Shown: positions 2-18,700, counted from the stretch's first letter. The stretch is 19,900 nt of DNA from Fimbriimonadales bacterium (GCA_041744215.1 JBGTLG010000008.1:1-19900); one strand, 5' to 3'. Numbers and translations are program-made. Notes: generated from the sequence alone by a model not told the origin.

Positions 2-3000
2 GAGACCATCAGGAGCCTTTCCGACTGGTTCCATCCTGGCATCGCCAGCACCTTCAACTTTTAGTTTTCCGAAGAGCAAACCCATCTGCGCTTCGTGCAG
101 TGCTTTCAGCTTCGTCCATGTCGGGTTCGCGACCTTGAGCCGATAGAACTCCGCCATCACGGCCGCGGTCGTAGGATCTGCGACTGGCCACAGCGTCGCA
201 AGCACCGACTCCGCACCTTTGAGCAACAACAGCGATGCAAAACTTTCGACGACTCCGCCAGCGTCGCTGGAAAGCTCGCGCGCCGTGCTACAGGCCGACA
301 TCGCGAACACTGCTACGCCTTCAAGAGCTTTTTCAGGAAGCGCCTTTAATTCGGATGCGGACCATGTCTCGCCATTTCCAAGAAGGAGGAATGACCTTAT
401 GTCGTTCCCAGGATTGAATTGGAAGTGGCTGGCGATGTGAATGACCTTCGGTCGGGAGGTTAGCGCCTGGATGAGCGCTTCCTTGCTGAACTTATCGTCG
501 GGAAGAGTCTTCGTTCCTGGCAGGGCCTTTGCGATGCCTTCCAGTTCTGATGGGACAAACTTCAATTCTGGAAAGTTGTGCATCTTGTTAGGGATGACCG
601 GATCCTCGACCGAGTGCTCTTTGCTTGTTCCCATCGCGACTCCCTTCCAATCTTGAATGGGTGTGGCAGCCAGGTTCGCCATCGCGGCAGGAGAGAAAAG
701 GACGGTGCCGTACTTTTCTATAAGATACTTCTCGCCATCCCAAAGCGCACCGATCGGAATGTGGCGGAGATTGCCTGAGAGCGACCAGAGAATCGTCTTC
801 GTGTCGTTCTTCTTAAGTTCGTCTTCGATCGGGGCGATGAGCAGGTCGTAAAACTCCTTGCCTAGTGGGCGGGGATCCAACTGTGGATTCTCGAGTGCAT
901 GCAGGAACGCCACAATCTTCTCGTTCCATTTGTCCACTTCGGTACGCTCTACTACTTCGCCCGAGAGATTTTTCGAAGTCGCCACCAGGAGTGCGAGGGC
1001 ATCGTCTGTAAGAGCCGTGAACACCGCGGTCGTTCCCGGCGGCATTTGGGCAAGAGCGGCTTGAAGGTCCTCGGACTCGCGTGTTTTGTCGAGCCGGTTC
1101 GTCTCCGGATCTATCTGCCTGCTCTCCGCTTCGATCTCTCGTAGCACGCGCGAAAGATCTTCCGATAACCCCGTCAGTTTGGCTTGCAAATCCTCGAGTT
1201 CGGTCTGCTGATCCGGCAGCCGCTCACGGATGTTCCTCAGCTCGACCTCTCTCTTGCCGAGCGTTCCGATGGAATCCATGACCGCTCCGAAACGGTCACT
1301 CCAGTCTTGCTCGCTCTTCGTGAATTCCGGTTTAGAGAATGTGCGTTCGTCGGCACTCGATTCATATTGGAAGAGCTCGTGTTCTTGTCCCAATACCATG
1401 ATCTGTGCCGCTTCTGCCAACCTCATTTCACCCACCAACCACAAAGACAACCTATCAAACTTATCCGAGACAGACTCAGTCAGGGCCCTCGTAACCTTTG
1501 AATCGATTCCTTCCGAAAGCATGCGGAGTCTCTGGGTGTGGACTAAGGCTAGCTTCACCATCATCAAGAAGGCCGGGTCCGCATTGAGATCGAGAAAAAT
1601 CGTTCCCATGTTACGTAGCGTTGCCGCCTCTCCGCGAATGTCTTCGACCCTCCTATGCAGCGGTAGCGCCTGCTCGTAGTGATCCAGAGCTTTGCGCTTC
1701 TCGCCAAGATCGGAATGGACAGTTCCGATGTTTTTTAGCGTCGTCGCTTCTCGGCTCATGTCTTCGGCTTGCCTGAAGAGCAGCAGGGCTCGCTCGTAGT
1801 ACTCCAGAGCTGTGCGATTCTCGCCGATGTAGGAATAGGCCGTTCCGATGTTGGACAGCGCCGCCGCCTCTCCTTCGATGTGCTCGTCTTTCCTGCTGAG
1901 CCGCGCAGCGTGTCCGAAGTACTCCAGAGCTTTGTGCTTCTCGCCGAGGTGCAAGTAGACGGCTCCGATATTGGTTAGCGCCGCCGCCTCTCCTCGGATA
2001 TCTTCGGACTTCCGATACAGTGGCAATGCATGTTCATACTGCTCCAACGCCATGCGTCTGTCGCCCAAGTCTGAATAGACCCACCCGATGTTGAGGCGCG
2101 TCGCAGCTTCCCCGCCCATCTTTCCGGCCAGCCTAAAGAGTGGTAGCGCCAATTCGAAGTAGTTTAAAGCCATGCGGTTCTCGCCAAGGTACGTATAAAC
2201 CAACCCGAGACTGTTCAGAATGTCCGCCTCTCCGTGAAAGTGCTTGACTTTTCGGAAAAGCGGCAGCGCTTCAGCGTAGTACTCCAGGGCCTTTGTCTTT
2301 TCGCCGAGTTGGGAATAGGACGCCCCGATCTGGCTCAGCGCAGTCGCCTCTCCGGAAATGTCTCCGCTCTCGCGTCGTAGTGGTAGGGTCTGTTCGTAAT
2401 ATTCCAGCGCCATACGTTGGTCGCCCAAGTCGGAATAGGTTGCTCCCATGTTGTACAGTGCCACCGCCTCTCCGCGAATGTCTGACGTCCTTCTGTATAG
2501 CGGGAGTGCCTGCCCGAAAAACTCCAGCGCTCTACGCTTCTCGCCGAGTTTAGAATAGGACACTCCGATCTGGTTCAGCGTGACCGCCTCGCCGGAAATG
2601 TCACCGATCTTCCGTCGGATTGCCAGCTCCTGCTGGCAGTACTGCAGAGTTTGGCGCTCCTCGCCGAGATCGGAGTACAACTCAGAGAGGGTCCCCAACA
2701 TGTCCGCCTCCATCTTTGAGTTCTCCGCCAGCCTCCAAAGCAACAACGACTCCTCAAATGATTCGATCGCTTTGTGTCTTTCGGCCAAATCGGAGTAGAG
2801 GCGTCCGAGACCGCCAAGCACGATAGCCTGCATTTCTACCTCCTCTTGGGTTTTCCAAAGTTGCACGGCCCGTTGCATGCATTCGATCGCTCGTTGGATC
2901 TCTCGCAACTCAAAATGGACTAGTCCTTTGACCATTAGCGTCGTCGCCTCTCCGATCATGTCTTCGGCCTTCCGATATAGCGGCAGTGCCTGCTCGTAGA

Positions 3001-3289
3001 ACGCGATCTCCTGACGTTGGCCACCAAGGATCCCTGACGCCTTGCCCAACCAGAAGAGAGACCACGCCTGGCCGGGAACATCCTCTAACTCAATCGCCTT
3101 CTCGTGCGCCGCCCGGGCCATCTTGAGCTTCTCTTGCCACGGTGCGGAACTCGCCTCGATCCGGTCCAGGCGCGCCTGCACTTCCGGGTGGGGCTTTTGC
3201 GGCGCCTTCTTCTGCTGCTCCTGCGCGGGGGGATTCTGAGTCCACTCGTGAGGACCCAGAGTGAAACTCGGCGCTTCCAACAGCGCCAA
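2..3289 (-). CDS. TPR-repeat + CHAT (caspase-like) domain protein, 3'-incomplete, start uncertain
   Basis: Manual translation gives an open minus-strand frame from just after TAA-TGA (3316-3311) to the window edge. It is missing from the ORF track because its stop lies outside the window. It has about 12.5 repeats of 40 aa (e.g. GEAAALTNIGAVYLHLGEKHKALEYFGHAARLSRK), a coiled-coil linker, then CHAT motifs LYDLLIAP-like (FYDLLIAP), LRHIPIGALWDG, VIHIASHF (His codon 427-425), AMSACST (Cys codon 292-290) and GAESVLATLWPVAD. Candidate starts are TTG 3289, TTG 3280 and ATG 3121, none with a good RBS. Confidence 0.93.
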   Translation of the reverse strand, partial: MALLEAPSFTLGPHEWTQNPPAQEQQKKAPQKPHPEVQARLDRIEASSAPWQEKLKMARAAHEKAIELEDVPGQAWSLFWLGKASGILGGQRQEIAFYEQALPLYRKAEDMIGEATTLMVKGLVHFELREIQRAIECMQRAVQLWKTQEEVEMQAIVLGGLGRLYSDLAERHKAIESFEESLLLWRLAENSKMEADMLGTLSELYSDLGEERQTLQYCQQELAIRRKIGDISGEAVTLNQIGVSYSKLGEKRRALEFFGQALPLYRRTSDIRGEAVALYNMGATYSDLGDQRMALEYYEQTLPLRRESGDISGEATALSQIGASYSQLGEKTKALEYYAEALPLFRKVKHFHGEADILNSLGLVYTYLGENRMALNYFELALPLFRLAGKMGGEAATRLNIGWVYSDLGDRRMALEQYEHALPLYRKSEDIRGEAAALTNIGAVYLHLGEKHKALEYFGHAARLSRKDEHIEGEAAALSNIGTAYSYIGENRTALEYYERALLLFRQAEDMSREATTLKNIGTVHSDLGEKRKALDHYEQALPLHRRVEDIRGEAATLRNMGTIFLDLNADPAFLMMVKLALVHTQRLRMLSEGIDSKVTRALTESVSDKFDRLSLWLVGEMRLAEAAQIMVLGQEHELFQYESSADERTFSKPEFTKSEQDWSDRFGAVMDSIGTLGKREVELRNIRERLPDQQTELEDLQAKLTGLSEDLSRVLREIEAESRQIDPETNRLDKTRESEDLQAALAQMPPGTTAVFTALTDDALALLVATSKNLSGEVVERTEVDKWNEKIVAFLHALENPQLDPRPLGKEFYDLLIAPIEDELKKNDTKTILWSLSGNLRHIPIGALWDGEKYLIEKYGTVLFSPAAMANLAATPIQDWKGVAMGTSKEHSVEDPVIPNKMHNFPELKFVPSELEGIAKALPGTKTLPDDKFSKEALIQALTSRPKVIHIASHFQFNPGNDIRSFLLLGNGETWSASELKALPEKALEGVAVFAMSACSTARELSSDAGGVVESFASLLLLKGAESVLATLWPVADPTTAAVMAEFYRLKVANPTWTKLKALHEAQMGLLFGKLKVEGAGDARMEPVGKAPDGL
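1575..3074 (-). repeat. Degenerate 120-bp coding tandem repeat (40-aa TPR-like units, 12 full plus 1 partial)
   Basis: CGCCTCTCC-like motifs (G-E-A codons) recur on the + strand near 1626, 1746, 1866, 1986, 2106, 2226, 2346, 2466, 2586, 2706, 2946 and 3066, an exact 120-bp period. Confidence 0.92.
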
Positions 3290-4883: not shown

Positions 4884-5108
4884 CTCCCGGCTTTCGACGC
4901 CGCGACCTCGTGTTCCTTCTGACCCTGTGGCTGCTCCCCTTATCATCACCTTCACCTAACTGAGGTCGATCATCTCGCTCTGAGGGAGATCTGGAGCGAG
5001 ACCCAGACCGATCCTCCTTAATGCAGCGCCTCGGGCTCTTTGCAAATCTCGAATTTTCAGGAAGGAATATCATGCTCCGCGTCGAATTGTTCATTAGGTA
5101 GGGACTTT

Positions 5109-5609
5109 ATGACCGATATGCCTAGGCAAAGTCGCAACTATTCGGCGGACCTTGAATCGTGGCTGACATGGCGATTTAAGCTGACCTTAGAGGATGCACA
5201 GGACGTCGCCCAGGAGGCCAGGATTACTGTATTCGCCAAGTCAACGACGGTCTCGGCCTCGTCCTGTACACCTTTGCTGCGTGCCGTCGCAATTAGGGTC
5301 GCCCTGAACCATGTTCGCAAGGAGAAACGCTTCCAAGACCTCATGGCGAGGACTTCCTTGCTTGTTTGCCCGTCCACCGATGAGCAATTCGCCGAGATCG
5401 ACGCCCGTTCGCTACTGCAATCCCTCTGCCTAAAGGCAACGCTCTCCGAGGCGGATGCAGCATTGCTATTCGGGGCCGTGATTGGACGACTCAGCCTTAG
5501 CCAACTTGCGGCACAAGCTGGTGCATCCGAATGCGCCGTGCGAAAGCGAATTGCTCGGGCGGTCCGCCGAATCCGAAAGGCAAATGTCGAGGCGGTCGTG
5601 CCGGAATAA
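5109..5609 (+). CDS. ECF-type sigma-70 family RNA polymerase sigma factor
   Basis: Region 2 motifs DAQDVAQEA and LRAVAIRVALNHVRKEKR, and region 4 HTH LSLSQLAAQAGASECAVRKRIARAVRRIRK. ATG 5109 follows AGGTAGGGA; the track's TTG 5040 start is less likely. Confidence 0.85.
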   Translation: MTDMPRQSRNYSADLESWLTWRFKLTLEDAQDVAQEARITVFAKSTTVSASSCTPLLRAVAIRVALNHVRKEKRFQDLMARTSLLVCPSTDEQFAEIDARSLLQSLCLKATLSEADAALLFGAVIGRLSLSQLAAQAGASECAVRKRIARAVRRIRKANVEAVVPE

Positions 5610-5620
5610 CCTCGGCGCGC

Positions 5621-5654
5621 CGACACTTTTTTCAAAGTTCTAAAAAATGTGTCG
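5621..5654. promoter_or_regulatory. Inverted repeat immediately after the sigma gene
   Basis: CGACAC-TTTTTT (5621-5632) pairs with AAAAAA-T-GTGTCG (5642-5654) around a 9-nt loop. Function (terminator or operator) is unknown. Confidence 0.4.
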
Positions 5655-5896
5655 CGGTTTGTGTCCCAATTTTTCTCCGAGAAGACATTAACTACCAACC
5701 ATCTACGGAATTGACCTTCATACGTAGGTGGGGACGGGATCCGAGGAGACCACGATCGTCGAAACGAAGGCTTTGCCCCAACCTTGGCCGACCCTTCGGA
5801 TGCGAAAGATTTACATCTTTCGCGATATCGTGAACTACCCGCGAGTTCTCGACGCATAGCGCGGGGCTCGGGTCTAGCGAGGAAACCAAGCAGACG

Positions 5897-6952
5897 ATGA
5901 CACCGAGACAAAGAGGGGATGTAAACAGCGGCCCAGGCTCTAGCCGGCGAGAGACCGCTGGCGCGATCGTAGCCGGGACGGTACTCCTCGCTGCCGTAAT
6001 CCTCGTGTCCTTAGGCATCAAGAGCAATACGGAGCCGCCCTCTTGGACGAGGCCCGACTTCCGCAGCCCCGAAGCAAAATCAGCAGACTCCGGAAGGACC
6101 GAAGGTGACCGCGCCTACTCCCGAGCCGACTTTCCAGCTGCAGAAGCCGCCTACCTAAAAGTTCTGCATGATTTCTCAGGATCCGAAGACCCCGACACTC
6201 AAGACCAAGTCGGCATTGCCCGCCTCAGGCTCGGCTACGTCGCCGGCAAGTCCGAAGACTTCGCAAAAGCCCAAGCTTGGTTTGACGAAGCTGCAACCGG
6301 CTACAAAGGCCGGGGCGGTGTGGATCCAGCGTTCGGTTCCATCGACGACCAGGGCGCCTACCAAGCTGCCGTCTCCCTCGCTGCTCAAGGAAAGATCGCC
6401 GAGGCAGAGCAAGCATTCGTCGCTTTCATCAAAGAGCGCAACCTGAGTCCACTTGTGCATGCGGCGTTCAACCGCCTCGTTAGGTTGACCGGCGGAAAAC
6501 CGAAAGCCGAACACGAAGCGCTCTTGCAGGAGGCGGTCACCGCACAAGAAAAGCACATCGCAATCGAATCCGCGATGTGCGGCCCGAAGGCTATCTGCCA
6601 TCTGCTCAAGCTCCTCGGGCGAGAAGAACCAGACTATCATGACGTCGCAAAACTCTGCAGCACGACAGAAAAGGGCACGACCATCCTAGGTCTAAGAACG
6701 GGCCTCAAAGAACTCGGGCTTCAGTCCTTTGGCTACCGGGTCAATCGCAGCGACGTCAGCCGCATCCCGCTCCCGGCAATCAGCCTAATCGAAGGGCACT
6801 ACGTCGTTATCGTCTGGATCAGTCGAACCAACATCGGCTTTTATGATCCGCTCTATCGGAGCGAGAGGGAGATCTCGCTTCCTCCCATCACCGACAATCG
6901 ATTTTCGCTCGACATCGTGACGCTTAAGTTGCTACAGGAGGATCTGCAATGA
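5897..6952 (+). CDS. Membrane-anchored TPR + C39-family cysteine peptidase (no ABC domain)
   Basis: N-terminal hydrophobic helix (AGAIVAGTVLLAAVILVSLGI) and three TPR-like helical hairpins. C-terminal C39 signature: CGPKAICHLLKLLG (C228), GTTILGLRTGLKELG, LPAISLIEGHYVVI (H301), FYDP (D317). Confidence 0.88.
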   Translation: MTPRQRGDVNSGPGSSRRETAGAIVAGTVLLAAVILVSLGIKSNTEPPSWTRPDFRSPEAKSADSGRTEGDRAYSRADFPAAEAAYLKVLHDFSGSEDPDTQDQVGIARLRLGYVAGKSEDFAKAQAWFDEAATGYKGRGGVDPAFGSIDDQGAYQAAVSLAAQGKIAEAEQAFVAFIKERNLSPLVHAAFNRLVRLTGGKPKAEHEALLQEAVTAQEKHIAIESAMCGPKAICHLLKLLGREEPDYHDVAKLCSTTEKGTTILGLRTGLKELGLQSFGYRVNRSDVSRIPLPAISLIEGHYVVIVWISRTNIGFYDPLYRSEREISLPPITDNRFSLDIVTLKLLQEDLQ

Positions 6953-9900
6953 ACTTCATCGAAACCGCTACCGCTCGTGTCATCGCCCGCGTGCTCGTCC
7001 TGGCGATGCTCAGCATTTCAGTGCCTTCCGCTTTGATAGCGGAAACTGCTGAGACACTCGGAAGAGTGAGCAAGATTAGAGCTGGAGTGACGTCTACCGA
7101 AGCGGTTGAGACACGCCCGCTCCTTGCCGCTGAGATGAGAGAGTTGAGCGGCAAGACGCTCCGCAATCCGTACATCGCGGGGTCACAGAAGTGGGGAATC
7201 AACTACAGCGGCGTCGATCTACTCACGGGCAACTTCTCCTTCTCGGCGACCGACCTCTCTTTCGAGGGAGGATACGGCATTCCGATCGCCGTCACGAGGA
7301 GCTATAGCTCGAACAGCGGAGATGAGGGGCCCTTCGGAAAGGGATGGTCTTTGAGCGCGGACATCCGGACGACGGCGGGTGGCGTCTTGAAATCGGGTGG
7401 AGCGCCAGTCCGGTCGGTGCCTGTTTCGATGATTGAGCGCCCCGTAGTGAGTCCCAACGATCCGAGAGACCCGACCGAATGGGCTGGCTGGTCGGGACAC
7501 ACTGGCGGGGGCCCGATGCAGGGAATTGGCCCGCAAACGATCACCGAAGGCGTAATCGCGACCGACGCGAGTGGATACGAGGAAACGATCCAAAGAGACG
7601 TGGACGGCGTTATGACGACTCCGCCGTGGGACAAGAACCTCACTGAAACGGTTTACGAGAAAAAGGAGCTTCCCGGGGGCGTCTGGCAGATTCCGGTCGA
7701 GATGACAGTGACCACGCCAGAGGGCACGGTCTACGTCTACGAAGCAAAAGGATTTTACGAGAAGCCGGGCAGCGCCAACGGCGAATTCGAAGAGGACACC
7801 GACGGGGTCTACGCCTACGGAGAGTATGACGCGAACCCAGCGCCGGCTCCAACACCCACATACATTCTGAAGATCGCGAGCATCACCGACCGCCATGGGA
7901 ATCAAGTCCTGTTCACCTACGGCGCGGGTTTAGTTTCGTTCTACACCGAAAGAGGATTGGCGCAGGAGAACCCGCTCGTGTCGGTGCTGATGGAAAACGG
8001 AAGAGAGATCGAGTTTGAATGGTACGAGAACCGCATAATCGAAGTCACCGATGGCGACCGAACAGTAGAGTATGGATACAACGGGTACGGCTTCCTTACT
8101 TCCGTCACGACACCAGGAGGCAAAACGACCGAGTACACCTACGGTGAGCCATACGGTGAAGTGCACACGGACAGCGACCTGCTCGTGAAGATCACCGATC
8201 CGCGCGGCTTGGAAACGCACATGTCCTACACCGTCGACGCCACCTTCATCTGGCCTTATGGCGTTTCGCTGGACGGAGTGTATTGCTACAGGATCATCCA
8301 CCCGAACGGCAACCATACCTACTTCGGCGCTGTAGACGTGAGTCTTCCATCTAGCGAAACACCATATTGGGACTCCCCTGCATACGACGTTTTGTGGAGC
8401 GATTGGGACAAGGCTTACGACGAAGGGGGAGCGAAGAAACTCAACGAAGGACAACTTAACGTATCTGCCTCCACGAGCGCACCCTACTTTGAAGTGTTCG
8501 TTCATGACGCAAACGCTAACACCGGAATGAACCCGGTTCACGTCAACGGTCCGCTGTCAGTGTATCGGCTGTTCAATATGTTTACTCAAGACCTCCTGAC
8601 GGAGTCCCGATATATTCATCGGAGCGCCTCGCAAGCCTCGGGAGGTCTTTACGAGGCTAGGAGGCTCGATGGCTGGCACTTCGGCGCTCAAGAAGTGACG
8701 GTGACGTCGACCTACAACTTCCGGGGCAGCCCGCTTAGCCGCGAAGTTCAAGAGGCGGCTTGGAATCCCAGCAGAAGTGTCGTGAGGACGACGGAGACTG
8801 AATACGCCTATTGGGGCGCTAAGAAGTGTTACCAGCAAAAAGCGGTGAAGGACAACGCAGGAAGATTCACCTATACGGACTATTTCGACACAGATGCGGC
8901 ACAAGGGAAAAAGGGACAAGTTTACAAAGTGTTCAACCAACCATTTGCGACGTTTTCGGGAACGAGCGGGGGGGGATGGCGCGCATCTATCGAAGTCGAC
9001 GACGAAGACGAATTCACTGCGACTTTCGACTACGACTCGTTAGGCAGGCCAACCGACGTCTGGAAGCTTCGCGATGATTCTTCGACCTATGACTACGTGC
9101 GCACCCGCACTACCTATCACCAATACTACGGCGGATCGGCGCACGAGGTTTACGAAGACTATCTCGGCGCCGACGAACGGGTCACCTCAACGGACGAATA
9201 TGATTCGGCTGGAAGGCCGCTTGTCGTCACCGACGCGGCAGGCAAAGTATTTGAAACCACCTACAACGCAGACGGGCAGGTGCTCTCAGTTTATAGAACT
9301 GACGTAAACCCCGACAAACTCATCGTCGGATACACCTACGGTTCCGCCGACGAAGAGAACGGAATGCCGATCTCAGTTACGGACGGAATCTATGAGTATT
9401 GGCAAGAGATCACGTATCACAATTCGGGAGGGGGAATCGGCCAAGTGGCGAGCGTTTCAGAAGGCGACGGACAAAGCTCTACCCCTATCTACAGCGCGTC
9501 GTATGCGTACACGGCAAGCGGTGAAAGGGAGGAGGCGACATACGTCACCCCAAACGGAACTACAAGGTGGGGCTATTACGATTACGTCAGGGCCGGGTCT
9601 CCGGATTCTCCGAAACGCGTGTTTCAGACTTTGAACAAACTGGACGGAAGCGGCGATAGGACGGCAGAGGAGTTTCATTATCAGTTCGATACGAGCGGTA
9701 GGTTGAGCCATGCCGCATTCGCCCAATCGCCGACTTTGGGGAGTCCTTCGAGCGGACAGTGGTATACGCAATACGATCCGGCTTCGTCGCGCGCCATCGC
9801 GTCTTATGAATACGGACCCGGAGGGCACGTTTTCAACGTGCAGCACATATGGCAGGTCTGGGACGACGATCCGTGGGTTCTCGCGTACGACACCGAAAAC

Positions 9901-11265
9901 GTGCAGAAGTCGGTATATCAGTACAACGCGACCACAGGCCTCAGAACCCAGGTCGAATACTTTCTGGAGTCCAGCGGCTGGACGCTGGATCACAAGCAAG
10001 CGTACGGCTACGATTCGAACCTCGACTACCTGACTTCGGCGACGTATTCGACCTCCTACACCGGCTCGGAGTCTTGGAGCTACGATGCAGCCGGGAACCG
10101 CACCGGAACCGGATACGCCTACGACAACCTCAACCGAATGGAATCGTCGCCGGGATACGTCTATCAAAATGACGTGCTTGGGAATAGGACATGGAGGAAC
10201 TTCGGGCAGTCCGGCGTGCAGAGGTACGTCTGGGACGAAGTCAATCGCCTAAAGAGCGTGTGTGGAACCTCCGACGGTGCGAGGTATGAGTACCGCGCGG
10301 ATGGGATGCGGATGAAAAAGGTCGCGGATCTGACGATCACCTGGAACCCGGGCGACAACGAGAACGAGGGCTCTGGATTCTATGATGACAACCTGTCCGT
10401 GAATAAGCCGACCACGCGATACTTCTACGACGGGCAAATGCCGATGGAAGAGGATTACAAGGTCCTCGGCGGCTTCGGTTCGCCGACTGTGACGGTGACG
10501 CAGTATGGTCTCGGCGCGAGAGGCATCGACTGGATTCGCAACAAAGTCGGCAGCGATCCGGAGACGATCGTGTTCCCGATTTATGATGGGCATGGGAACA
10601 TGATCTACACGCTCAAACGCGACGGCACCGATGACTATCTGCTCGGCAACAAACGCATCTACGGCGCATGGGGAGACCTAAGACACGACAGCAATCCAGG
10701 CGACGGACCCAACACGCAGTACGTCGGAAATCTCGGACACAAGAAAGACAATGAATCCGGCCTCACCTACATGCGCGCCCGCTACTACGAGCCGTGGACC
10801 GGACGGTTCATAAGCGAAGACCCGGCTGGTGATGGATGGAATTGGTTCGTGTATTGCGGAAATGATCCCTTCAATTTTGTAGACTATGATGGCAACAAGC
10901 GGATCAAACTATCTGATCTCGAGGGCTACAAGATGGCCGCGATGTTACTGGGGTTAAGCATGGGTGCAATTGCAGTACTGATTGCGAGTAATTCGAAGGC
11001 ATCAGATAAAGAAGGACTATGGATGGCTGCTAACTTAGCGTTAACTAGCGTCGCTCTAATCGGATATGGCGGCACGATCGGCAAGTTTGGCGAAGTCCTG
11101 CAATTTAGCAATCTCGCGTTTGGAGCACTCATTACGACATTGATTGTCGGCCTCGCAAGAACAGGCAACATCAGATATGGTCCGATAAATTTATATGTTA
11201 TGTCAATAGCTTTCTATGGCATTGCTGTTCTCGGTTTCGTGTTATGGGGATTGGAGATAAATTGA
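6949..11265 (+). CDS. Rhs/YD-repeat polymorphic toxin with signal peptide, DUF6531-like head and hydrophobic C-terminal domain
   Basis: RBS CAGGAGGA and ATGA overlap with the upstream gene. DUF6531-like VDLLTGNFSFSATDL..TRSYSS..GPFGKGWS; YD repeats (YDSLGRP, YDSAGRP, YDAAGNRT, YDNLNRM); Rhs core end YMRARYYEPWTGRFISEDP..NWFVYCGNDPFNFVDYDG; then a 123-aa C-terminal domain. Confidence 0.95.
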   Translation: MNFIETATARVIARVLVLAMLSISVPSALIAETAETLGRVSKIRAGVTSTEAVETRPLLAAEMRELSGKTLRNPYIAGSQKWGINYSGVDLLTGNFSFSATDLSFEGGYGIPIAVTRSYSSNSGDEGPFGKGWSLSADIRTTAGGVLKSGGAPVRSVPVSMIERPVVSPNDPRDPTEWAGWSGHTGGGPMQGIGPQTITEGVIATDASGYEETIQRDVDGVMTTPPWDKNLTETVYEKKELPGGVWQIPVEMTVTTPEGTVYVYEAKGFYEKPGSANGEFEEDTDGVYAYGEYDANPAPAPTPTYILKIASITDRHGNQVLFTYGAGLVSFYTERGLAQENPLVSVLMENGREIEFEWYENRIIEVTDGDRTVEYGYNGYGFLTSVTTPGGKTTEYTYGEPYGEVHTDSDLLVKITDPRGLETHMSYTVDATFIWPYGVSLDGVYCYRIIHPNGNHTYFGAVDVSLPSSETPYWDSPAYDVLWSDWDKAYDEGGAKKLNEGQLNVSASTSAPYFEVFVHDANANTGMNPVHVNGPLSVYRLFNMFTQDLLTESRYIHRSASQASGGLYEARRLDGWHFGAQEVTVTSTYNFRGSPLSREVQEAAWNPSRSVVRTTETEYAYWGAKKCYQQKAVKDNAGRFTYTDYFDTDAAQGKKGQVYKVFNQPFATFSGTSGGGWRASIEVDDEDEFTATFDYDSLGRPTDVWKLRDDSSTYDYVRTRTTYHQYYGGSAHEVYEDYLGADERVTSTDEYDSAGRPLVVTDAAGKVFETTYNADGQVLSVYRTDVNPDKLIVGYTYGSADEENGMPISVTDGIYEYWQEITYHNSGGGIGQVASVSEGDGQSSTPIYSASYAYTASGEREEATYVTPNGTTRWGYYDYVRAGSPDSPKRVFQTLNKLDGSGDRTAEEFHYQFDTSGRLSHAAFAQSPTLGSPSSGQWYTQYDPASSRAIASYEYGPGGHVFNVQHIWQVWDDDPWVLAYDTENVQKSVYQYNATTGLRTQVEYFLESSGWTLDHKQAYGYDSNLDYLTSATYSTSYTGSESWSYDAAGNRTGTGYAYDNLNRMESSPGYVYQNDVLGNRTWRNFGQSGVQRYVWDEVNRLKSVCGTSDGARYEYRADGMRMKKVADLTITWNPGDNENEGSGFYDDNLSVNKPTTRYFYDGQMPMEEDYKVLGGFGSPTVTVTQYGLGARGIDWIRNKVGSDPETIVFPIYDGHGNMIYTLKRDGTDDYLLGNKRIYGAWGDLRHDSNPGDGPNTQYVGNLGHKKDNESGLTYMRARYYEPWTGRFISEDPAGDGWNWFVYCGNDPFNFVDYDGNKRIKLSDLEGYKMAAMLLGLSMGAIAVLIASNSKASDKEGLWMAANLALTSVALIGYGGTIGKFGEVLQFSNLAFGALITTLIVGLARTGNIRYGPINLYVMSIAFYGIAVLGFVLWGLEIN

Positions 11266-11271
11266 TAGGAA

Positions 11272-11550
11272 ATGATGGCAGAATTACTACACGGAATTGC
11301 GTTACCATTGACCGTTGGCCTTATACTTGTGGCTATGAAATGTTATCGCGAACCTGAGTCTCCAGCGTTGAGGTCTCCATTAGCTATTGCAGTCCCAATC
11401 GCTGTTGCCCTAAACCCGCTGATGATGTGGCTAGCGTCAATGCAATGGATCGACCGAATAACATCGGCAGCAATAGCAGTATGTGGAGTGTTTAGTGTTT
11501 TGTTGTGGCTTCTGATTTCGATACGATGTGCCGCCAAACGGACTGAGTAG
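11272..11550 (+). CDS. Small membrane protein (about 3 TM), putative immunity protein
   Basis: Starts 6 bp after the Rhs stop, has three hydrophobic segments, and shares the lower GC of the Rhs C-terminal region. Confidence 0.7.
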   Translation: MMAELLHGIALPLTVGLILVAMKCYREPESPALRSPLAIAVPIAVALNPLMMWLASMQWIDRITSAAIAVCGVFSVLLWLLISIRCAAKRTE

Positions 11551-11821
11551 TAAAGTGATATATCCCTCCACTGCTTGCCGTGGAGGGTACAGGCCCAGCC
11601 AATCTTCATGTCGGCAGGGTGGCCGGAGCGAAACGATGCAAGAGAATGAAAGAAACTATCGGCAGAAACAATCTTGGGTGCCATGGGTGGTGGGCGAATT
11701 GCAACACGCTCCGTCACGTCACGCCGGCACTTCATACATGAACGGCCTTTCCCACCGCCCGTGAATTCAGACGAATTGCGATCGAGCAAAATCACAACAA
11801 AGTAAACGAATGAGGAAACGG

Positions 11822-12259
11822 ATGAAACAACTGACACTTGCAATCGCAGCCTTCGTGCTGACTTGCGCCGCAACGGCGCAGGGCTTTTTCACCATAGAGA
11901 TTCCCGCCGACGCCACAAACGGCATCAACGAACGCAAAGCGGCCCCAACTTGGATCGGCACGATGGACGGACAAACCCAGGTCGCCGACACCCGCCACGT
12001 TTTCGAGATCACGCTCAAAGTGAAAAGCGGAAGCGGCGGAGGCGATGGCCTTCCATCGGGCGCACAACTCGTCAACCTCGACGAAAGCGGCACCGTCTGC
12101 TGGGTCGGGATCATGGAGAGCGAAGAATTCGACGACGTCGGGGTAGCTTGGGAGATGACCGGAAAAGGCAGGGGCCTCTATCCCATCGAATCCGGAATGA
12201 ATCCTGAGACCGCCTACTTTATCGGATGCAAACTGACAGCCGGCCCCGCAGCGGGTTGA
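11822..12259 (+). CDS. Secreted hypothetical protein
   Basis: GAGG RBS before ATG 11822, signal peptide MKQLTLAIAAFVLTCAATA, beta-rich mature region. The track start is 11810. Confidence 0.75.
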   Translation: MKQLTLAIAAFVLTCAATAQGFFTIEIPADATNGINERKAAPTWIGTMDGQTQVADTRHVFEITLKVKSGSGGGDGLPSGAQLVNLDESGTVCWVGIMESEEFDDVGVAWEMTGKGRGLYPIESGMNPETAYFIGCKLTAGPAAG

Positions 12260-12520
12260 CTTCTGCCCCTCCCGAGGACTTAACCAACGGTGGCCTTGTG
12301 CCCGAGGGAATGCGCCCTAAACACTCGCAACACCGAACCCAACCCAGCCGGTGAACTCGAAAACCCGCGTTAACAATAATAAACGGTGATGAGTTCGATG
12401 AGTCCAGTGAGTCCGAGGAGCCGTTAACAAATCGAGCGCGGACAGGTCAACCAGAAACGATGGAGGGCGAAGTGTTAGGGAATGCGCTCCCTGCCAGCAT
12501 AGCCCCGGAGGCAAACCCGG

Positions 12521-12526
12521 TATACT
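12521..12526 (+). promoter_or_regulatory. Putative -10 element (TATACT) of purA
   Basis: TATACT ends 13 nt before the purA ATG. No recognisable -35 element or Shine-Dalgarno sequence. Confidence 0.45.
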
Positions 12527-12539
12527 CGCTCGTCCCGCC

Positions 12540-13829
12540 ATGCCTACGCTCATTATCGTCGGCGCGCTTTGGGGAGACGAGGCCAAGGGAAAACTCGTCG
12601 ACGTCTTTGGAGCAAGCGCCAAGTATAACGTCCGCTACAGCGGGGGCAACAACGCAGGCCACACAGTCAAAGTCGGCGCCGAAACTTTCAAGTTTCACCT
12701 GATCCCTTCGGGCATTCTCCACGAATCGTGCACCGCCGTACTCGGCGCAGGCATGGTCGTCTGCCCCGCCGCCCTCGTCGGCGAATTGAGAACGTTTCGT
12801 GAAAAGTCCGGTCGCAATGGAAGGCTTCTCATCTCCGGCGCAGCGCACGTCGTGTTTCCTTACCATCGTTCGCAAGACGCCGCAGAAGAAGAGATGCGCG
12901 GCGACAATCCGCTAGGGACCACCAAACGCGGCATCGGCCCTGCATACCAAGACAAGGTATCGCGCGTCGGAATCCGAATGTGGGAATTCATCAATCCCAC
13001 AAGATTGAAAGATCGGGTCGAAGAGGTTGTGTCTTTGAAGAATCGAACGCTCAAAGCGTTCGGCGAAAAACCGATAAAAGCGGAAGAGATCCTGGGCGAG
13101 TACTGTGACTATGCAGACGAAATCCGCCCCTTCGTCGGCGAAGCTGAACTCATTGTCAACGAGGCAATCCGTCGCGGCGAAAAAGTCTTGTTCGAAGGCG
13201 CGCAAGGAACGCTGCTCGATATCGATATGGGTACTTATCCATACGTCACCGGCAGCCACCCAACCGCCGGGGGCGCATGCGTTGGAACCGGGCTGCCGCC
13301 TACGATGGTGAACAACGTGCTGGGTGTCTGCGCCGCATACGCAACGCGCGTTGGCGCGGGTCCATTTCCAACCGAACTCGACAACGAAATCGGCGAAAGA
13401 ATCAGAGTTCAAGGAAACGAATTTGGAACGACGACGGGGCGCGCAAGACGGACGGGATGGCTCGATCTCGTCGCTCTCCGACATGCGTCGCGCATCAACG
13501 GTTTTACATCGCTCGCGATCACTCGCCTCGACGTCCTGAGCGGATTCGAACAGCTCGGGCTCTGCACCGGCTACGAAATCCGCGGCCAGCAAACCGATGC
13601 GTTCCCTTCCGATACCGAAAGACTAAGCGCAGCGATTCCTCTAATGGAGATGTTGCCAGGCTGGAATGAGAATCTTTCCAAATGCACCTCAATAGAGGCT
13701 CTTCCAGCTGAAGCCCAACGTTTCGTTGAGCGCATTGAGATGTTCACCGAAACGCCAGTCTCCGTAGTTTCTGTTGGACCCGAGCGGACCGAAACGATGG
13801 TGATTCGCCCAGACTTGATCTGGAACTAG
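12540..13829 (+). CDS. purA: Adenylosuccinate synthetase
   Basis: Motifs WGDEAKGK, GGNNAGHT, GTTKRGIGPAYQDK, EGAQG, TRVGAGPFPTE, EFGTTTGRARRTGWLD and SVGP; 429 aa. Confidence 0.99.
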   Translation: MPTLIIVGALWGDEAKGKLVDVFGASAKYNVRYSGGNNAGHTVKVGAETFKFHLIPSGILHESCTAVLGAGMVVCPAALVGELRTFREKSGRNGRLLISGAAHVVFPYHRSQDAAEEEMRGDNPLGTTKRGIGPAYQDKVSRVGIRMWEFINPTRLKDRVEEVVSLKNRTLKAFGEKPIKAEEILGEYCDYADEIRPFVGEAELIVNEAIRRGEKVLFEGAQGTLLDIDMGTYPYVTGSHPTAGGACVGTGLPPTMVNNVLGVCAAYATRVGAGPFPTELDNEIGERIRVQGNEFGTTTGRARRTGWLDLVALRHASRINGFTSLAITRLDVLSGFEQLGLCTGYEIRGQQTDAFPSDTERLSAAIPLMEMLPGWNENLSKCTSIEALPAEAQRFVERIEMFTETPVSVVSVGPERTETMVIRPDLIWN

Positions 13830-15472
13830 GCCACCCGGATCTTCTTCCCGGGTTTCATCTCCGGATACACCCTCGTAAGGGCACCCTTTGCAAACAGTTC
13901 GCGCAGAACCGCCACGACCTTCGGATCATAGTGCGTACCGGACTCTAACTCGAGCTGCTCAAAAACCGCAAGAGGCGACAACGTTTCGCGGTACGGTCGC
14001 CTTGAGTTCATTGCGTCCCAAGCATCCGCAACCGCAAGAATTCTTAACGAAGTCGACATCGATTCTGCTGTAAGCGCGTCAGGATATCCGCTCCCATCCA
14101 GCCATTCGTGATGGTTTCGGATCAAAGACAGAACGGAATCATTCAACCCAAGCGGCTTACAGATTCCGTATCCCACAAGAGGATGAGATTTCATGACAAT
14201 GAATTCCTCCTGGGATAATCTGCCGGGCTTGTTCAAGACCTCGTCGGGTACGCCGATTTTCCCCACATCATGGAGCAGCGCGCCAACGCGCAATTCTTCG
14301 ACCTCCAGCGCGGATAGAGATAAAGCATTAGCTATCAGCATGGACACGCTGCACACCCGCTCCGAGTGTCCGCGCGTGTACTCATCTCTCGCTTCAAGCG
14401 TGCGCACCAACGCCTCAAGAGACCGAACGTAAGCCGTACGCAATTTGGACTCCATCCTCGAGTTTAAGATGGACACGGATATCAGCGATGAAAACGTTTT
14501 GAGGAGATCGATGTCCGCAGCGTCGAAAGGCTCGCCGCGATTCGGCTCAATCACAGTCAACGTCCCGTAAAGCGGTTCACCGGATGCAATTCCTCCGTCG
14601 GGTGACACTCGCGCTGCGAGAGGAACGCTAGCTATGGCGTGCTCGCCAACTCCGTAGGACTGCCCGTCGACACGTGATTCGACACGGTTCACGATTTGAC
14701 CGCTTCTGGCGGCAAGGACTGATGCGCCTGACGCGATCTCGGTCCCATCGAGCAGTTTGACTTGAGAGAAGCCCGTCGAGAACGCAACGCGCAATGCGCC
14801 GCGTTCGTCCCCCACGAGGACGTAGCCACATACCGCTCCTGATTCGCGCACTGCGGCGGACAATAACTTCGGAAGAATTGCGGTGTGATCTTCAGTCGAA
14901 GACATCCCGGCGCCACACGAGAGCAGCGCAGAGAGGCGTCTTTCTCTCGCAGCTTGCGCCTCTTCTTCGACGTGAAACTTCGCTAACCCGATTGCCACGA
15001 TCGCAGACGTGAAGACTGTTATAAAGGCTAGAACTGCGTACGTTGTTCCGCCGCCCAAGAGTAGCTCGCCGGCAACGCCGGTCGAGCCGATCAGCGCGGC
15101 AAAAACCATCACGCGGATCGTGCTGCGCGACGCGATCGCCTCTGTGAGAATCAGCGCGGACCCGAGCACCCAGCAAAACGGGATGAGGTGGGTCAGGGAC
15201 AAGCTTGCTGCGGCAACCGCGAGGACCTCAAGAGTTCTCACCGCATGGAGAAACCGCTGGTAGGTCGCCTTGTCCGGCCAAGTCAGCCGTCCGAGCAGGA
15301 TCGAACCCACGGCAACGGACAGTACCACGACGTACGCCAGCCAGATGTAGATTGAAGCTTTGCTTAGCAGGAGAAGGCCGCCCGCGGCAACGAGAACCGC
15401 CAGCCGGGCTGCCGCTGTTAATCTTTCGATCCGCCTCCGAAAGTCCGCTCGGGTACTCAAACGCGCTAACAC
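13826..15472 (-). CDS. Membrane-bound GAF + HD-GYP cyclic dinucleotide phosphodiesterase
   Basis: About 5-6 N-terminal TM segments and a GAF-like middle (IASVPL..YGTLTV..FDAADIDLL). HD-GYP motifs RDEYTRGHSERV, LLHDVGKIG, HHEWLDGSGYP and VADAWDAMNSRRPYR. Convergent 4-bp CTAG overlap with purA. Confidence 0.93.
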   Translation of the reverse strand: MLARLSTRADFRRRIERLTAAARLAVLVAAGGLLLLSKASIYIWLAYVVVLSVAVGSILLGRLTWPDKATYQRFLHAVRTLEVLAVAAASLSLTHLIPFCWVLGSALILTEAIASRSTIRVMVFAALIGSTGVAGELLLGGGTTYAVLAFITVFTSAIVAIGLAKFHVEEEAQAARERRLSALLSCGAGMSSTEDHTAILPKLLSAAVRESGAVCGYVLVGDERGALRVAFSTGFSQVKLLDGTEIASGASVLAARSGQIVNRVESRVDGQSYGVGEHAIASVPLAARVSPDGGIASGEPLYGTLTVIEPNRGEPFDAADIDLLKTFSSLISVSILNSRMESKLRTAYVRSLEALVRTLEARDEYTRGHSERVCSVSMLIANALSLSALEVEELRVGALLHDVGKIGVPDEVLNKPGRLSQEEFIVMKSHPLVGYGICKPLGLNDSVLSLIRNHHEWLDGSGYPDALTAESMSTSLRILAVADAWDAMNSRRPYRETLSPLAVFEQLELESGTHYDPKVVAVLRELFAKGALTRVYPEMKPGKKIRVA

Positions 15473-15746: not shown

Positions 15747-18700
15747 ATGAGGATCAAGTGGGCGTACTTGACTGTGTTGCTCTGTGCCCCGGTCGCCGGG
15801 TGGGCGGCTGATTATGAGCTTGTCATCCCCAACACCGGCGCGCAACTGAAGCATAGCCCGGCGTTGGTCGTCTACGGGCCCGGCGCGCTCAAGGCGGGAG
15901 ACCGGATCGTGAGTGTCCGGTTTGGGGGAGGCAAGGTAGGCAGCACAGCGGTCTCGGTTGAAGGCAGAAACACCTTCGACGGCCCGATCCTGTCCAAGGA
16001 CGCCGAGGTCGGCGAGTTTGTCGGCAAGGTCTACTTGGGGGCAGGTGATGCACCCGACAAAGCGGTCGGAGCGTCGATCGCCGAAGTTGCCCCTGGCGCA
16101 GCAGCCAGTGTCGCCGCTGCAGCAAAGGCAGCGGCGGCCAATCCGGATGCGCTTCCCCCCTGGGTGTTCTGGGTAGGTGGCGCGATCGGTTTGGGGTTCT
16201 TATTGCTCTTCCTCAGATCGAACATGTCCGGCAAGGTGACGCTGCCCGCTGGGCCGATCGGGCCCAGCAGGAGAAGTTCGATTGGCGAGATCTTCACTGA
16301 TGTCCAAAACCAAATCTCGAAGATGAGCGAGACTCAGCACGAACTTTTGGCGAACCCACCGGGGATGAAAGAACTGAAGAAGAAGCTCGGATCAATCGAG
16401 GAGCGGCTTGCCAAGATCGAGACGGCCGGACAGGCCGCCGCTCAAGCAAGTACAAAGATTTCCAGCGCTCTTATTGCCGCCGAAAAGCACGCCGCAGAGC
16501 TTTCAGCCGGCAGCGAGACTACTCAGAAGACGCTCGCCGAACTGAAGCGAAACGTCGACGCACTTAATGTCGAGTCCGCAAATCGCGGTGCCGACTTCAA
16601 AAAGCAAACCTCATCCGCGCAGCAGGCTATCGATGCGGTTCGCAACGCGGTCGCGGCCAATGAAACCGCCATTGCCAAGAGTGCAGAATCTATTCGCGCC
16701 GTCGAACAGCGCTTTGATCAAGTCGAGCAACGACTCGACTCGGCATTCGAATCTGTCGGTGGAAAACTGGATGATGTCGCGAAACAGGCGGCGAAGCAGG
16801 AGTTGGTTTCGTCGGCGGTCAACAAACTAACGGAAAGGTTATCTGGAATTGAGGCTAAACCTTCACTTGCTACAGCAGACATTGCGCCAATTGCCGAGGG
16901 AATCAGAGAGCTGACGGAGAAAACGCAAGCCGCCCTGACCGAACTCGATCGGCGACTCCTCGATTTGCGTTCGACGGTCGATGAGTTTTCTCAGCGAGAC
17001 GATCGATCAGCGTCGATCGACTCTCGGCTCGTCGAAATCTCTGCAAAGTTTGAAGACGTTGACGAAAGATTGTCGGCAATGCCTGCTCCGATCTCCGATC
17101 TGCAACCGTTAGCCGGCCGGCTCGATGAGCTGTCGCGTCGATTTAGTGAGATTGAAGAAAAGCTCAGCGCGCCAGCGAAAGAAACATTCGATCCCACACC
17201 TCTTGAGAGCCAGCTCGCAGAGATTGCCGCGAGAGTTGATGCGCTATCAGCTCAGATCGCACAAGTTCCAGATAACGCCTCGGAAGTTGCGGCAATGGAA
17301 CGCACGCTGGGTCAGTTATCCGATAGCGTTAAACTCCTACAGCAGCAAGCCGACGCGCAGAAGGACCCGGCAATCGAAACGACTCAACTCTATGACAAGC
17401 TCGAGGATCTGTCCGCGCAGCTCGTCGCTTTACAGCATCGAGTCGAAGAACAGCAGTTCGATTCGCAGCAAACTGCACAGCCTGCGGTGGCCAGCGTTGA
17501 GCCAGCGGCGGCTGAGGAACCGGAGGCTGATCAAGATTTCAAAGAATCCATGCCGGGACCCACGATCATCCTTGACCCCCCCCAAGATGTAGATTTGGAA
17601 TCCGATGACGCAGATGACTTGGATCTTGTTTCGCCCAAGGGATGGGCGGGTATGCGCGGCACTGCCGAAGGCAGATGCAGCGCTGAGTTCCATAGAGGAA
17701 TGAAGCTCAGCTCAGATGAGAAGCCCAACCTGTTGCATCCTGTTGACTCCCCCATGGGGACATCTCCCGTTGGCGGCCCAATTGCCTATGGTCGACGCCT
17801 TCTCTACACGCATGGACAGACCGTCCGCGGCTTTTGGCCGGGGCGTGAGGATCGAGCGATTTCGCTGCCAGAGGAACCTCCGACCGACGAATGGCGCTTG
17901 CTTCAAAGTGGGTCAGCAGTCTTCTGCGTTGGAGAGTCGACCGTTCACATCGGCGATCTCAACTCATGGGCGCGAAAAACTTCGTTCCCAGGAAAGTATT
18001 TCGCGCAAACGCACAACGGTGAACACTGGGTCGGCGCGTTCGAGGAAAGTGGCAGCGCATTCCTCGACTTCCGAACAATCCGCGGAGAACAGGCCCATCC
18101 GCCAGTAGCGCTTTCTGTATCTGCTGGAGGTTTGGAGGTAGTTGCGTCTGGCACGGACGTCTTTGCCTATTCTCTCGCTGGAGAAATCGTGAAGGTGGCC
18201 GCGGGTTCGGCTAAGCAAGTCGGTGCGTTCTCAGGATCGATCGTCCGCGTATGCAGACACAAAGACGCGCATCTCGCGTTGGTACACACAGATAAAGGCT
18301 TGTTGATTGAGCTTGTCGATGACCACGGCAAGCGCGTCGGGTATCTGCAACTCAATTTCAGCGCAGAACCAGAAGCTTTCGTCGCGATGGGTTCGCGGTT
18401 GTACCTGTTCGATCAAGACAAGTCCGAGTTCGTCGCGATCGATCTGAGGAAGATGTCCGTTGCACAGCGCTGGGCATCAAGCGATGTCGCACGAGTTCGC
18501 AAGCTATCCGGAATTCAATCTGCTCGGGCTCACTTCCTTGCAGTCGTTGGCGCGAGCGGCGAGAAGAACACAGGTCGGGCTTTTGTTGTCGACGTAAAGA
18601 CCGGTGACGAATACAACCTCTGTCAAGTGCTCGAGCCTTTTGTCTCAGTGATTCCGGTGGACACGCATGTTGCGGTGGTAACGCGGTGCTCGTATCAGAA

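Follow-up and report, generated by a model that had tools for sequence, protein, structure and literature searches.

We analysed a 19,900-nucleotide (nt) stretch of DNA from Fimbriimonadales bacterium (GCA_041744215.1, JBGTLG010000008.1:1-19900), hereafter the window, in which positions 5897-11550 hold three co-oriented open reading frames (ORFs): P0001, a 351-amino-acid (aa) protein that joins a tetratricopeptide repeat (TPR) region to a C39 cysteine peptidase domain; P0002, a 1438-aa Rhs protein; and P0003, a hydrophobic protein of 92 aa. We put at about 0.7 the probability that in this three-gene toxin module a dedicated C39 peptidase matures the Rhs toxin outside the cytoplasm, an interpretation supported by each of the computational tests that we ran, the cleavage itself being predicted. 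The two topologies, the cleavage, its exact site and its effect are what we infer from the data presented below. The tetranucleotide ATGA at 6949-6952 is common to the stop codon of P0001 and the start codon of P0002, and the stop codon of P0002 (TGA, 11263-11265) is separated by 6 nt from the start codon of P0003 (ATG, 11272), a layout that a preliminary description of this DNA had given and that our reading of the ORFs bears out. That description had also seen no PAAR, VgrG, WXG or ABC-transporter module in the window, and none appeared when 16 window ORFs were scanned with Pfam.

Domain structure of the peptidase and the Rhs protein

The Pfam model Peptidase_C39 (PF03412) matched residues 226-323 of P0001 (E 1.7e-10; 41.3 bits against a cut-off of 22), and TPR_16 matched weakly (24.7 bits, cut-off 32.7). 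The codons of the presumed catalytic triad were read in the DNA at 6578-6580 (C228), 6797-6799 (H301) and 6845-6847 (D317). Across an alignment of 35 sequences C228 and H301 do not vary and D317 is conserved to at least 90%, and the corresponding counts in a set of 32 sequences were 32/32 for Cys, 31/32 for His and 29/32 for Asp; judged by these residues, P0001 looks like an active enzyme. An AlphaFold2 (AF2) model of P0001, made with 35 homologues, has a mean pLDDT (predicted local distance difference test) of 90.5 and comprises, after a long N-terminal helix (residues 17-40), a region of helical repeats and an alpha/beta domain. Its best fold matches in the PDB were the peptidase domains of ComA (5xe8_A, TMt 0.71), PCAT1 (7n87) and LahT150 (6mpz, a leader complex), which at the level of the model points to the papain-like C39 fold; further matches were the inactive C39-like domain of HlyB (3zua) and, for the repeat part, the periplasmic TPR protein YbgF.

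Homologues of P0001 occur in 83 of 401 genomes sampled from the phylum (its own genome counted). A profile of the full-length enzyme, run against 1.84 billion protein clusters at 50% identity, retrieved 266 representatives at E<=1e-30, of which the best 150 are all stand-alone proteins of 231-499 aa. A protein homologue search with P0001 yielded five homologues, and a search of genome contigs returned one weak TPR match only, on a gammaproteobacterial scaffold.

P0002 carries DUF6531 (PF20148) at residues 89-141, RHS repeats (PF05593, TIGR01643) and an Rhs-associated core (TIGR03696) at residues 1238-1315 (E 4.8e-18), that is, the repeats, the core and the N-terminal plug of an Rhs/YD-repeat toxin. 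The coordinates of all features are collected in Table 1.

Table 1 Features of the locus, with positions counted from the first letter of the window and the basis of each assignment.
Feature	Position	Strand	Basis
TPR-C39 cysteine peptidase gene (P0001), 351 aa, membrane-anchored (predicted)	5897..6952	+	ORF, Pfam C39, AF2 model, PDB fold matches
N-terminal signal-anchor helix, about residues 21-41, after R4, R6, R17 and R18	5957..6019	+	Kyte-Doolittle hydropathy, AF2 helix 17-40; topology predicted
C39 catalytic domain, with Cys228, His301 and Asp317	6572..6865	+	Pfam, conservation of the triad
Rhs toxin gene (P0002), 1438 aa	6949..11265	+	ORF, Pfam, NCBIfam
Predicted Sec signal peptide, residues 1-31, ALIA|E	6949..7041	+	Hydropathy of 1.63 over residues 3-21
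Predicted pro-region, residues 32-69, putatively removed by the C39 peptidase	7042..7155	+	Interval from the signal peptide to the mature N-terminus that leaderless relatives define
Double-glycine-type leader motif, residues 58-69; predicted cut K69|T70	7120..7155	+	Conservation in 21 partners, complex-model interface, published register
DUF6531, N-terminal plug of the Rhs shell, residues 89-141	7213..7371	+	Pfam
Rhs-associated core, residues 1238-1315, with C-terminal aspartyl autoprotease-type motif	10660..10893	+	TIGR03696
C-terminal toxin candidate, 122 aa, strongly hydrophobic	10897..11262	+	Kyte-Doolittle hydropathy, G+C of 0.49
Immunity candidate gene (P0003), 92 aa, three hydrophobic segments	11272..11550	+	Hydropathy; function proposed from position

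A conserved leader and its pairing with the peptidase

The published consensus of double-glycine leaders reads Leu(-12)-x3-Glu(-8)-Leu(-7) with Gly at -2, and the residues at -4, -7 and -12 occupy a hydrophobic groove of the peptidase (PMC6363468). P0002 has this register between its signal peptide and its plug, with L58 at -12, E62 at -8, hydrophobic residues at -7 (M63) and -4 (L66), G68 at -2 and K69 at -1. We aligned the N-termini of 21 partner Rhs proteins, which in this region are 21-53% identical to P0002, and found L(-12)xxxE(-8)M(-7)xxL(-4)xG(-2)[RK](-1) at the same place in all 21; of these residues, G68 does not vary, L58 reaches at least 90% conservation, and every partner has R or K at position 69. 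The partner N-termini share an order of parts, namely a signal-like segment, a linker of very variable length (~25 to 80 residues from the hydrophobic segment to the leader) and then a conserved block, R-x-L-[ST]-x-x-E-M-x-x-[LM]-x-G-[RK], placed 3-10 residues before the 'RNPY..G..W' start of the plug region. The motif that the preliminary description had named is thus conserved, and its account of position -1 as Gly, Ala or Ser is corrected to Lys or Arg for the aligned partners. Beyond the alignment, canonical endings do occur: the leaders end in GT, GA, GA and GS in the partners of a group of short C39 variants (see below), and in GG and GA in genomes G012 and G011 (G and L numbers denote genomes and loci). 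The pattern L...E[LMIV]..[LIVM].G[GASRK] matched 17 times in the 1,437,149 residues of 6,555 six-frame ORFs of this genome, which gives ~0.017 chance matches expected in a 1438-aa protein; since a single match is therefore only mildly unlikely, the weight lies on conservation and position.

The neighbourhoods of the 32 best non-self P0001 hits and of eight weaker ones (40 loci) were examined; their ORFs were predicted mechanically and searched for similarity to P0001 and P0002 with blastp and with hidden Markov models of alignments made here. An Rhs ORF lies within 300 nt downstream and on the same strand in 23 of the 32 best loci, and 29 of the 32 hold some Rhs-like ORF in the fetched stretch, so the proposed linkage of the peptidase homologues to Rhs genes stands. 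In L044 and L048 the leader-bearing Rhs gene is upstream of the peptidase gene instead, and L048, L055, L057 and L060 end at a contig edge with no downstream DNA. Twelve other ORFs of the window gave no blastp match at E<=1e-5 among the ORFs of the 40 loci. No other window gene is thus syntenic, which leaves the peptidase-Rhs pair as the conserved unit. The same loci also hold longer proteins of 556-640 aa with a C39 domain related to that of P0001 (L056:12500-14422, minus strand; L065:3624-5369 and 7199-8869, plus strand). No Rhs was detected near them in the fetched loci, and they may form a further exported C39 branch with other substrates.

Natural fusions of the two proteins, which the preliminary description had mentioned, do exist in the phylum. 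Four single ORFs of ~1480-1570 aa (L067, L068, L069 and L070) encode TPR, Peptidase_C39, (DUF6531) and RHS repeats by Pfam, and in three of the four a GG or GA motif comes after the C39 domain and before the plug: L068 has its C39 domain at 259-375, LSPEELRNAWGG at 389-400 and DUF6531 at 428-504, with enzyme, putative cut site and plug on a single chain, and the leaders end ...SAEATSIVGG in L069 and ...VEANAYWGA in L067. No clear GG/GA motif was seen after the C39 domain of L070. A peculiarity of two fusions (L068:3592-8301, minus strand; L069:4518-9092, plus strand) is that Cys-Cys comes directly after the leader's Gly-Gly, with a Cys/Gly/Pro-rich stretch between it and the plug; were they cut there, two cysteines would head the new N-terminus.

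The fusions bear on the idea that the peptidase acts on an unrelated envelope or target-cell protein as an accessory to the Rhs, the motif being a structural element of the latter. C39-type domains do also serve as C-terminal toxin domains of polymorphic toxins (Tox-PLC39; PMC3482391), and some peptidase genes have no neighbouring Rhs gene. In the fusions, however, the C39 domain is N-terminal and stands directly before the GG motif, not at the toxin end; in addition, the leader register is kept across Rhs proteins as divergent in this region as those aligned above, and the motif is missing in genomes where the TPR-C39 homologue was not found. We consequently give this idea very little credence.

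The compartment in which the two proteins would meet was assessed by Kyte-Doolittle hydropathy (window 19) and inspection, from which the topologies are derived. P0001 has one strongly hydrophobic segment (residues 23-41, score 2.65) behind four Arg residues, as would be typical of an anchor, and an N-terminal segment above the threshold, with basic residues before it, recurs in 28 of 32 homologues. The N-terminal segment of P0002 (residues 3-21) is milder, scoring 1.63, and ends ALIA|E, as would be typical of a cleaved signal; the partner Rhs proteins have equivalent segments that end in AxA-like sites. The membrane anchor and the Sec-like signal peptide of the preliminary description are both recovered in this way, as predictions. 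Five short C39 variants (194-282 aa; Pfam C39 E 1e-16 to 1e-25), whose genes lie directly upstream of Rhs genes, add a further line of evidence, as four of them carry a lipobox-like L-x-G-C signal (assessed by eye). Lipoproteins are exported, and therefore at least the short C39 branch should work outside the cytoplasm, in independent support of the earlier claim that enzyme and Rhs are both extracytoplasmic, which hydropathy predicts. If instead P0001 faced the cytoplasm, the textbook location of C39 domains (PMC5557850, PMC6363468), it would remove the whole Rhs N-terminus, hydrophobic segment included, before export by some transporter, in the manner of bacteriocin systems. Several observations speak against such classical processing: the window lacks an ABC transporter and P0001 is the sole C39 match of the genome, basic residues precede the anchor helix, the short variants carry lipoprotein-type signals, and the fusions L068, L069 and L070 begin with a signal-like segment. 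We regard it as extremely improbable.

To place the motif among Rhs proteins at large, we turned to DUF6531, which gave 91 matches in 57 of 151 sampled genomes, 13 of them within 3 kb of a P0001-like hit (coordinates compared by eye). The 30 best DUF6531 loci comprised nine with the leader motif, all of one Rhs subfamily; 19 with other Rhs types that have neither the motif nor a C39 gene within 1.5 kb; one pseudogene fragment; and one (G073) that belongs to the subfamily and is leaderless. A profile of leader plus plug matched in 46 of 401 genomes. The match covers the leader columns in 33 non-self genomes, and in G012 the leader sits behind an insertion; 33 of these 34 genomes with a leader-bearing Rhs also have a P0001 hit (base rate 82/400), the exception being G209, where the leader-bearing Rhs is a 116-aa fragment only. 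Because the genomes are kin, these co-occurrence counts are descriptive and do not amount to a statistical test.

Six Rhs proteins of the same subfamily have no leader, and they come from two genomes. The signal peptide of the one in G073 runs straight into ...THA|DTLRNP, and this genome (96% complete) has no Pfam C39 match. G388 (68% complete), which has no P0001 hit, holds the other five as near-identical paralogues (L153-L157), in which a short classical signal peptide is joined directly to the conserved mature N-terminus (...PASA|GPYRNAY, with the variants GQY and GPF), where leader-bearing relatives read ...G-R|GPYRN. In the leaderless relatives a signal-peptidase site thus stands at the C39 cut expected from the canonical register (in G073, to within one residue), and for the window this points to cleavage at K69|T70.

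The same relatives help to weigh a variant in which the N-terminal segment of the Rhs stays uncut and tethers the toxin to the inner membrane, so that the C39 cut releases the folded Rhs as a sheddase would. A membrane-anchored enzyme would sit beside such a tethered substrate, and the linker between segment and leader differs in length among partners as a spacer would. The Rhs segment is, however, only mildly hydrophobic next to the anchor of the peptidase (1.63 against 2.65), it ends in AxA-like sites in many partners (ALIA, NLYA, AFA, ALA), and the leaderless relatives depend on just such a site; we consider this variant unlikely.

Finally, we folded residues 45-351 of P0001 together with residues 36-95 of P0002, each with its own alignment. 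The check with AlphaFold-Multimer that had been suggested for the C39 domain and the Rhs N-terminus was passed, with an ipSAE complex score of 0.74 (runs 0.72, 0.78 and 0.74) against 0.06 for the best control. Of 157 solved complexes, 116 attain this mark, as do 2 of 215 mismatched pairs, a calibration that is rough here as our alignments were self-made. At least 65% of the contacts are common to the runs, and the pLDDT of the partner is 56. The interface comprises C228, G229, 259-264, 278-283, 296-302 and 333-339 on P0001, and 45-58, 60 and 62-71 on P0002, which is the leader block up to the predicted cut. As no TPR residue takes part in the confident interface, we rejected the TPR region as a substrate binder; the preliminary description had the TPR-C39 protein as a whole bind the Rhs pro-region, and the modelled interface uses the C39 domain and not the TPR. 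Since C39-leader complexes have already been solved (for example 6MPZ) and the alignments were self-made, the score shows likeness to the known binding mode only.

A model of this kind shows binding and not cutting, and the C39-like domain of HlyB (3zua) is among the best fold matches, both of which would suit a C39 domain that serves as a chaperone or dock for the leader, HlyB-like, and holds the Rhs until it is handed to an outer-membrane route. Against this, P0001 and its relatives keep the triad at the frequencies given above (35 sequences), whereas inactive C39-like domains are without the catalytic Cys (PMC6363468), and the leaderless relatives begin at the predicted cut. We find binding without cutting very unlikely.

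The candidate toxin end and the genomic setting

The C-terminal tip of P0002 has hydropathy segments above the threshold at residues 1329-1347, 1383-1401 and 1417-1435. It gave no Pfam match and no PDB sequence relative at E<=1, and P0003 gave no family match in Pfam or NCBIfam, no PDB match and no blastp homologue at 1e-3. The tip is weakly similar to those in L038, L039 and L051, which are followed by small multi-transmembrane ORFs of 83, 92 and 129 aa. We think that the tip probably damages membranes and that P0003, going by its position, probably protects the producer as an immunity protein. The G+C content falls from ~0.56 to 0.49 over the tip and P0003 and is 0.55-0.59 on either side (window positions 10500-12000), consistent with a recently swapped, exchangeable tip/immunity cassette. 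Elsewhere in the phylum, L033, L038, L036, L039 and L049 show the classical displaced-tip arrangement, in which the main Rhs gene has one to four orphan C-terminal Rhs fragments arrayed downstream of it.

The whole assembly (2.68 Mb, 93% complete) contains one C39 match, namely the P0001 gene, one DUF6531 match, namely P0002, and 11 Rhs-core matches, these being P0002 and 10 short core-plus-tip ORFs on other contigs. On these counts the organism seems to have just one full-length Rhs and one C39 peptidase, along with a set of spare tips. The 10 core-plus-tip ORFs (L073-L082) are open frames of 235-599 aa on contigs C3, C4, C13, C19, C27, C28, C29, C36, C40 and C42 of this genome (G000), and they look like a store of spare tips that could recombine into the one main Rhs gene. 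Neither a type VI secretion system (T6SS) sheath protein (VipB/TssC) nor PAAR was found in this assembly.

An ECF-type (extracytoplasmic function) sigma factor gene at 5040-5609 (plus strand) lies directly upstream of P0001. Its NCBIfam ECF matches are below the cut-offs and include a sub-threshold match to the 'Rhodopirellula/Verrucomicrobium family' model. We considered it as part of the conserved module and rejected it because the blastp comparison of the 12 window ORFs with the 40 loci gave nothing. A promoter and terminator scan of 5000-12600 found no sigma-70-like site and one good hairpin, at 11862-11882, which we do not read as the terminator of the operon because it lies inside the signal-peptide coding region of the next ORF. 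An ORF at 11528-11764 appears to be non-coding and was rejected as a gene. The rest of the window encodes a protein of more than 1096 aa with many TPR repeats and a CHAT (caspase-like) protease domain, which runs off the window end (2-3289, minus strand); adenylosuccinate synthetase (12540-13829, plus strand); a signalling protein with GAF and HD(-GYP-type) domains (13826-15472, minus strand); a 1002-aa protein with coiled-coil-type matches only (SMC/Rad50-like, below cut-offs; 15747-18755, plus strand); and an N6/N4 DNA methylase that also runs off the window end (18994-19899, minus strand).

A proposed maturation route and its relation to known systems

In the route that we propose, P0001 would insert with its N-terminus in the cytoplasm and its TPR and C39 domains facing the periplasm, and P0002 would be exported by Sec via an ordinary N-terminal signal peptide. 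The ~38-residue pro-region behind the signal would have at its end a helix whose residues are spaced like those of a bacteriocin double-glycine leader; this amphipathic helix would dock in the C39 groove and be cut after G68-K69, so that the mature Rhs would start at T70, ~19 residues before the DUF6531 plug. The cut would remove residues 32-69, or release the Rhs if the signal segment stays uncut, and it may simply remove or release the N-terminal pro-region rather than 'activate' the cage. The shell would enclose the 122-aa hydrophobic toxin, probably membrane-damaging, and the adjacent 92-aa membrane protein would probably protect the producer.

Comparative support for this route comes from three directions, namely the linkage of the two genes, their natural fusions, and the leaderless relatives with a signal-peptidase site at the predicted cut. 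Several points weigh against it. All topology calls come from hydropathy and inspection by eye and the cleavage itself is predicted, and the complex score may stem from the predictor having memorised solved C39-leader structures, 6MPZ for example. The motif and the peptidase are confined to related Rhs subfamilies whose genomes are kin and not independent, so their co-occurrence overstates the support. The pairing also has exceptions: the peptidase has no downstream Rhs in four of the 28 assessable loci (L056, L059, L061 and L062), three leader-bearing Rhs genes (L112, L113 and L114) have no C39 gene within 5.2, 2.1 and 6.5 kb upstream, respectively, and G388, which is 68% complete, holds one different exported C39-like protein of 245 aa. 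At the cut site, two relatives that are not in the alignment lack the Gly at -2 (A-S in G061, A-R in G048), and -1 is Lys or Arg, whereas the characterised C39 enzymes cut after Gly-Gly, Gly-Ala or Gly-Ser (PMC6363468). With a little more confidence than doubt, we extend the proposal from the locus to the phylum, where an exported C39 enzyme and a post-Sec leader would form a general, T6SS-independent way of maturing a large class of Rhs toxins, with Gly-Arg/Lys specificity. Its designs would be three and interchangeable, with the C39 acting in trans as an anchored TPR-C39 or as a lipoprotein, or in cis as part of a fusion.

The closest enzymatic parallel is with the exporters of the peptidase-containing ABC transporter (PCAT) and ABC-transporter maturation and secretion (AMS) type, such as ComA, PCAT1 and LahT, with which the locus shares the C39 fold, the Cys/His/Asp triad and the substrate register. 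P0001, however, is a stand-alone chain with no ABC transporter attached, its predicted orientation is towards the periplasm, and its genome has no other C39 match; the leader follows a Sec signal (residues 58-69) instead of being N-terminal and ends in G-K, not in GG, GA or GS; and the cargo is a 1438-aa Rhs, not a small peptide. Given the missing ABC fusion and the internal leader, we do not assign the locus to the PCAT/AMS export systems. FapD, from the Fap amyloid system of Pseudomonas, is a stand-alone C39 protein of the periplasm whose active-site Cys is essential, and like P0001, as far as the predicted export of the latter goes, it is an exported stand-alone C39 with a Sec-exported partner from its own operon (PMC5557850). 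Unlike P0001 it has no TPR and no membrane anchor, and sequence similarity is negligible: the FapD equivalog model (NCBIfam NF058616) scored 15.3 bits on P0001 against a cut-off of 330 (E 0.009), which places P0001 outside that family. Its operon makes fibres that are exported through FapF (PMC5557850), whereas the partner here is a toxin for which a cut site can be proposed.

With the T6SS Rhs toxins that cleave themselves near the N-terminus (Tse5, RhsA, Rhs1 and TseI) the locus shares the Rhs shell, the DUF6531 plug and the core motif. In Tse5, DUF6531 forms the N-terminal plug at 48-124 and self-cleavage takes place at K47|P48, directly before it (PMC10684867), and other Rhs/YD toxins, too, are reported to cleave themselves upstream of the shell (PMC13018210). 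The cut predicted for P0002 is likewise just upstream of the plug, and its hydrophobic tip resembles the pore-forming Tse5-CT (PMC10684867) in kind and not in sequence. P0002 differs in having a Sec signal and in that its N-terminal cut is assigned to a separate enzyme and not to the Rhs itself; by analogy, this enzyme seems to do the job that self-cleavage does in the T6SS toxins. Since no PAAR, VgrG linkage or T6SS sheath was found, we do not class P0002 as a T6SS Rhs effector. WapA of Bacillus and the bacterial teneurin-like proteins have, like P0002, a signal peptide, an Rhs/YD shell, a polymorphic C-terminal toxin and a neighbouring immunity gene, and the part of the source that we draw on reports neither a dedicated C39 peptidase nor a double-glycine-type pro-region for them (PMC13018210); DUF6531 also matches in the B. 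subtilis control genome. In the part of Zhang et al. 2012 that was covered, C39-like domains are listed only as C-terminal toxin domains (PMC3482391). Our search of a limited body of papers found none that links a C39 peptidase to N-terminal Rhs processing, and none on the family of full-length TPR-C39 enzymes.

C39 peptidases, double-glycine leaders and Rhs shells with a DUF6531 plug are each well described, and Rhs toxins are among the commonest bacterial weapons; to our knowledge, the maturation and release of the many T6SS-independent, Sec-exported ones have been little described. What would be new here, as read from the sequences, is that bacteriocin-type leader processing is moved to the periplasm, acts on a large Rhs cargo and tolerates a basic residue at -1. 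The locus offers a concrete candidate pair of enzyme and cut site (C228; K69|T70), and a search signature for such toxins consists of a signal peptide, then LxxxE[ML]xx[LIM]xG[RKGAS] and then DUF6531. If the proposal is true, it would connect leader processing of the bacteriocin type with large protein toxins and give the first defined enzyme/cut-site pair for periplasmic C39 peptidases, and cutting after Gly-Arg/Lys would be a specificity not described for C39. The pro-region would then control when or where the toxin shell becomes competent for release, and the recurrence of the pairing across the phylum points to an undescribed step in the maturation of Rhs toxins.

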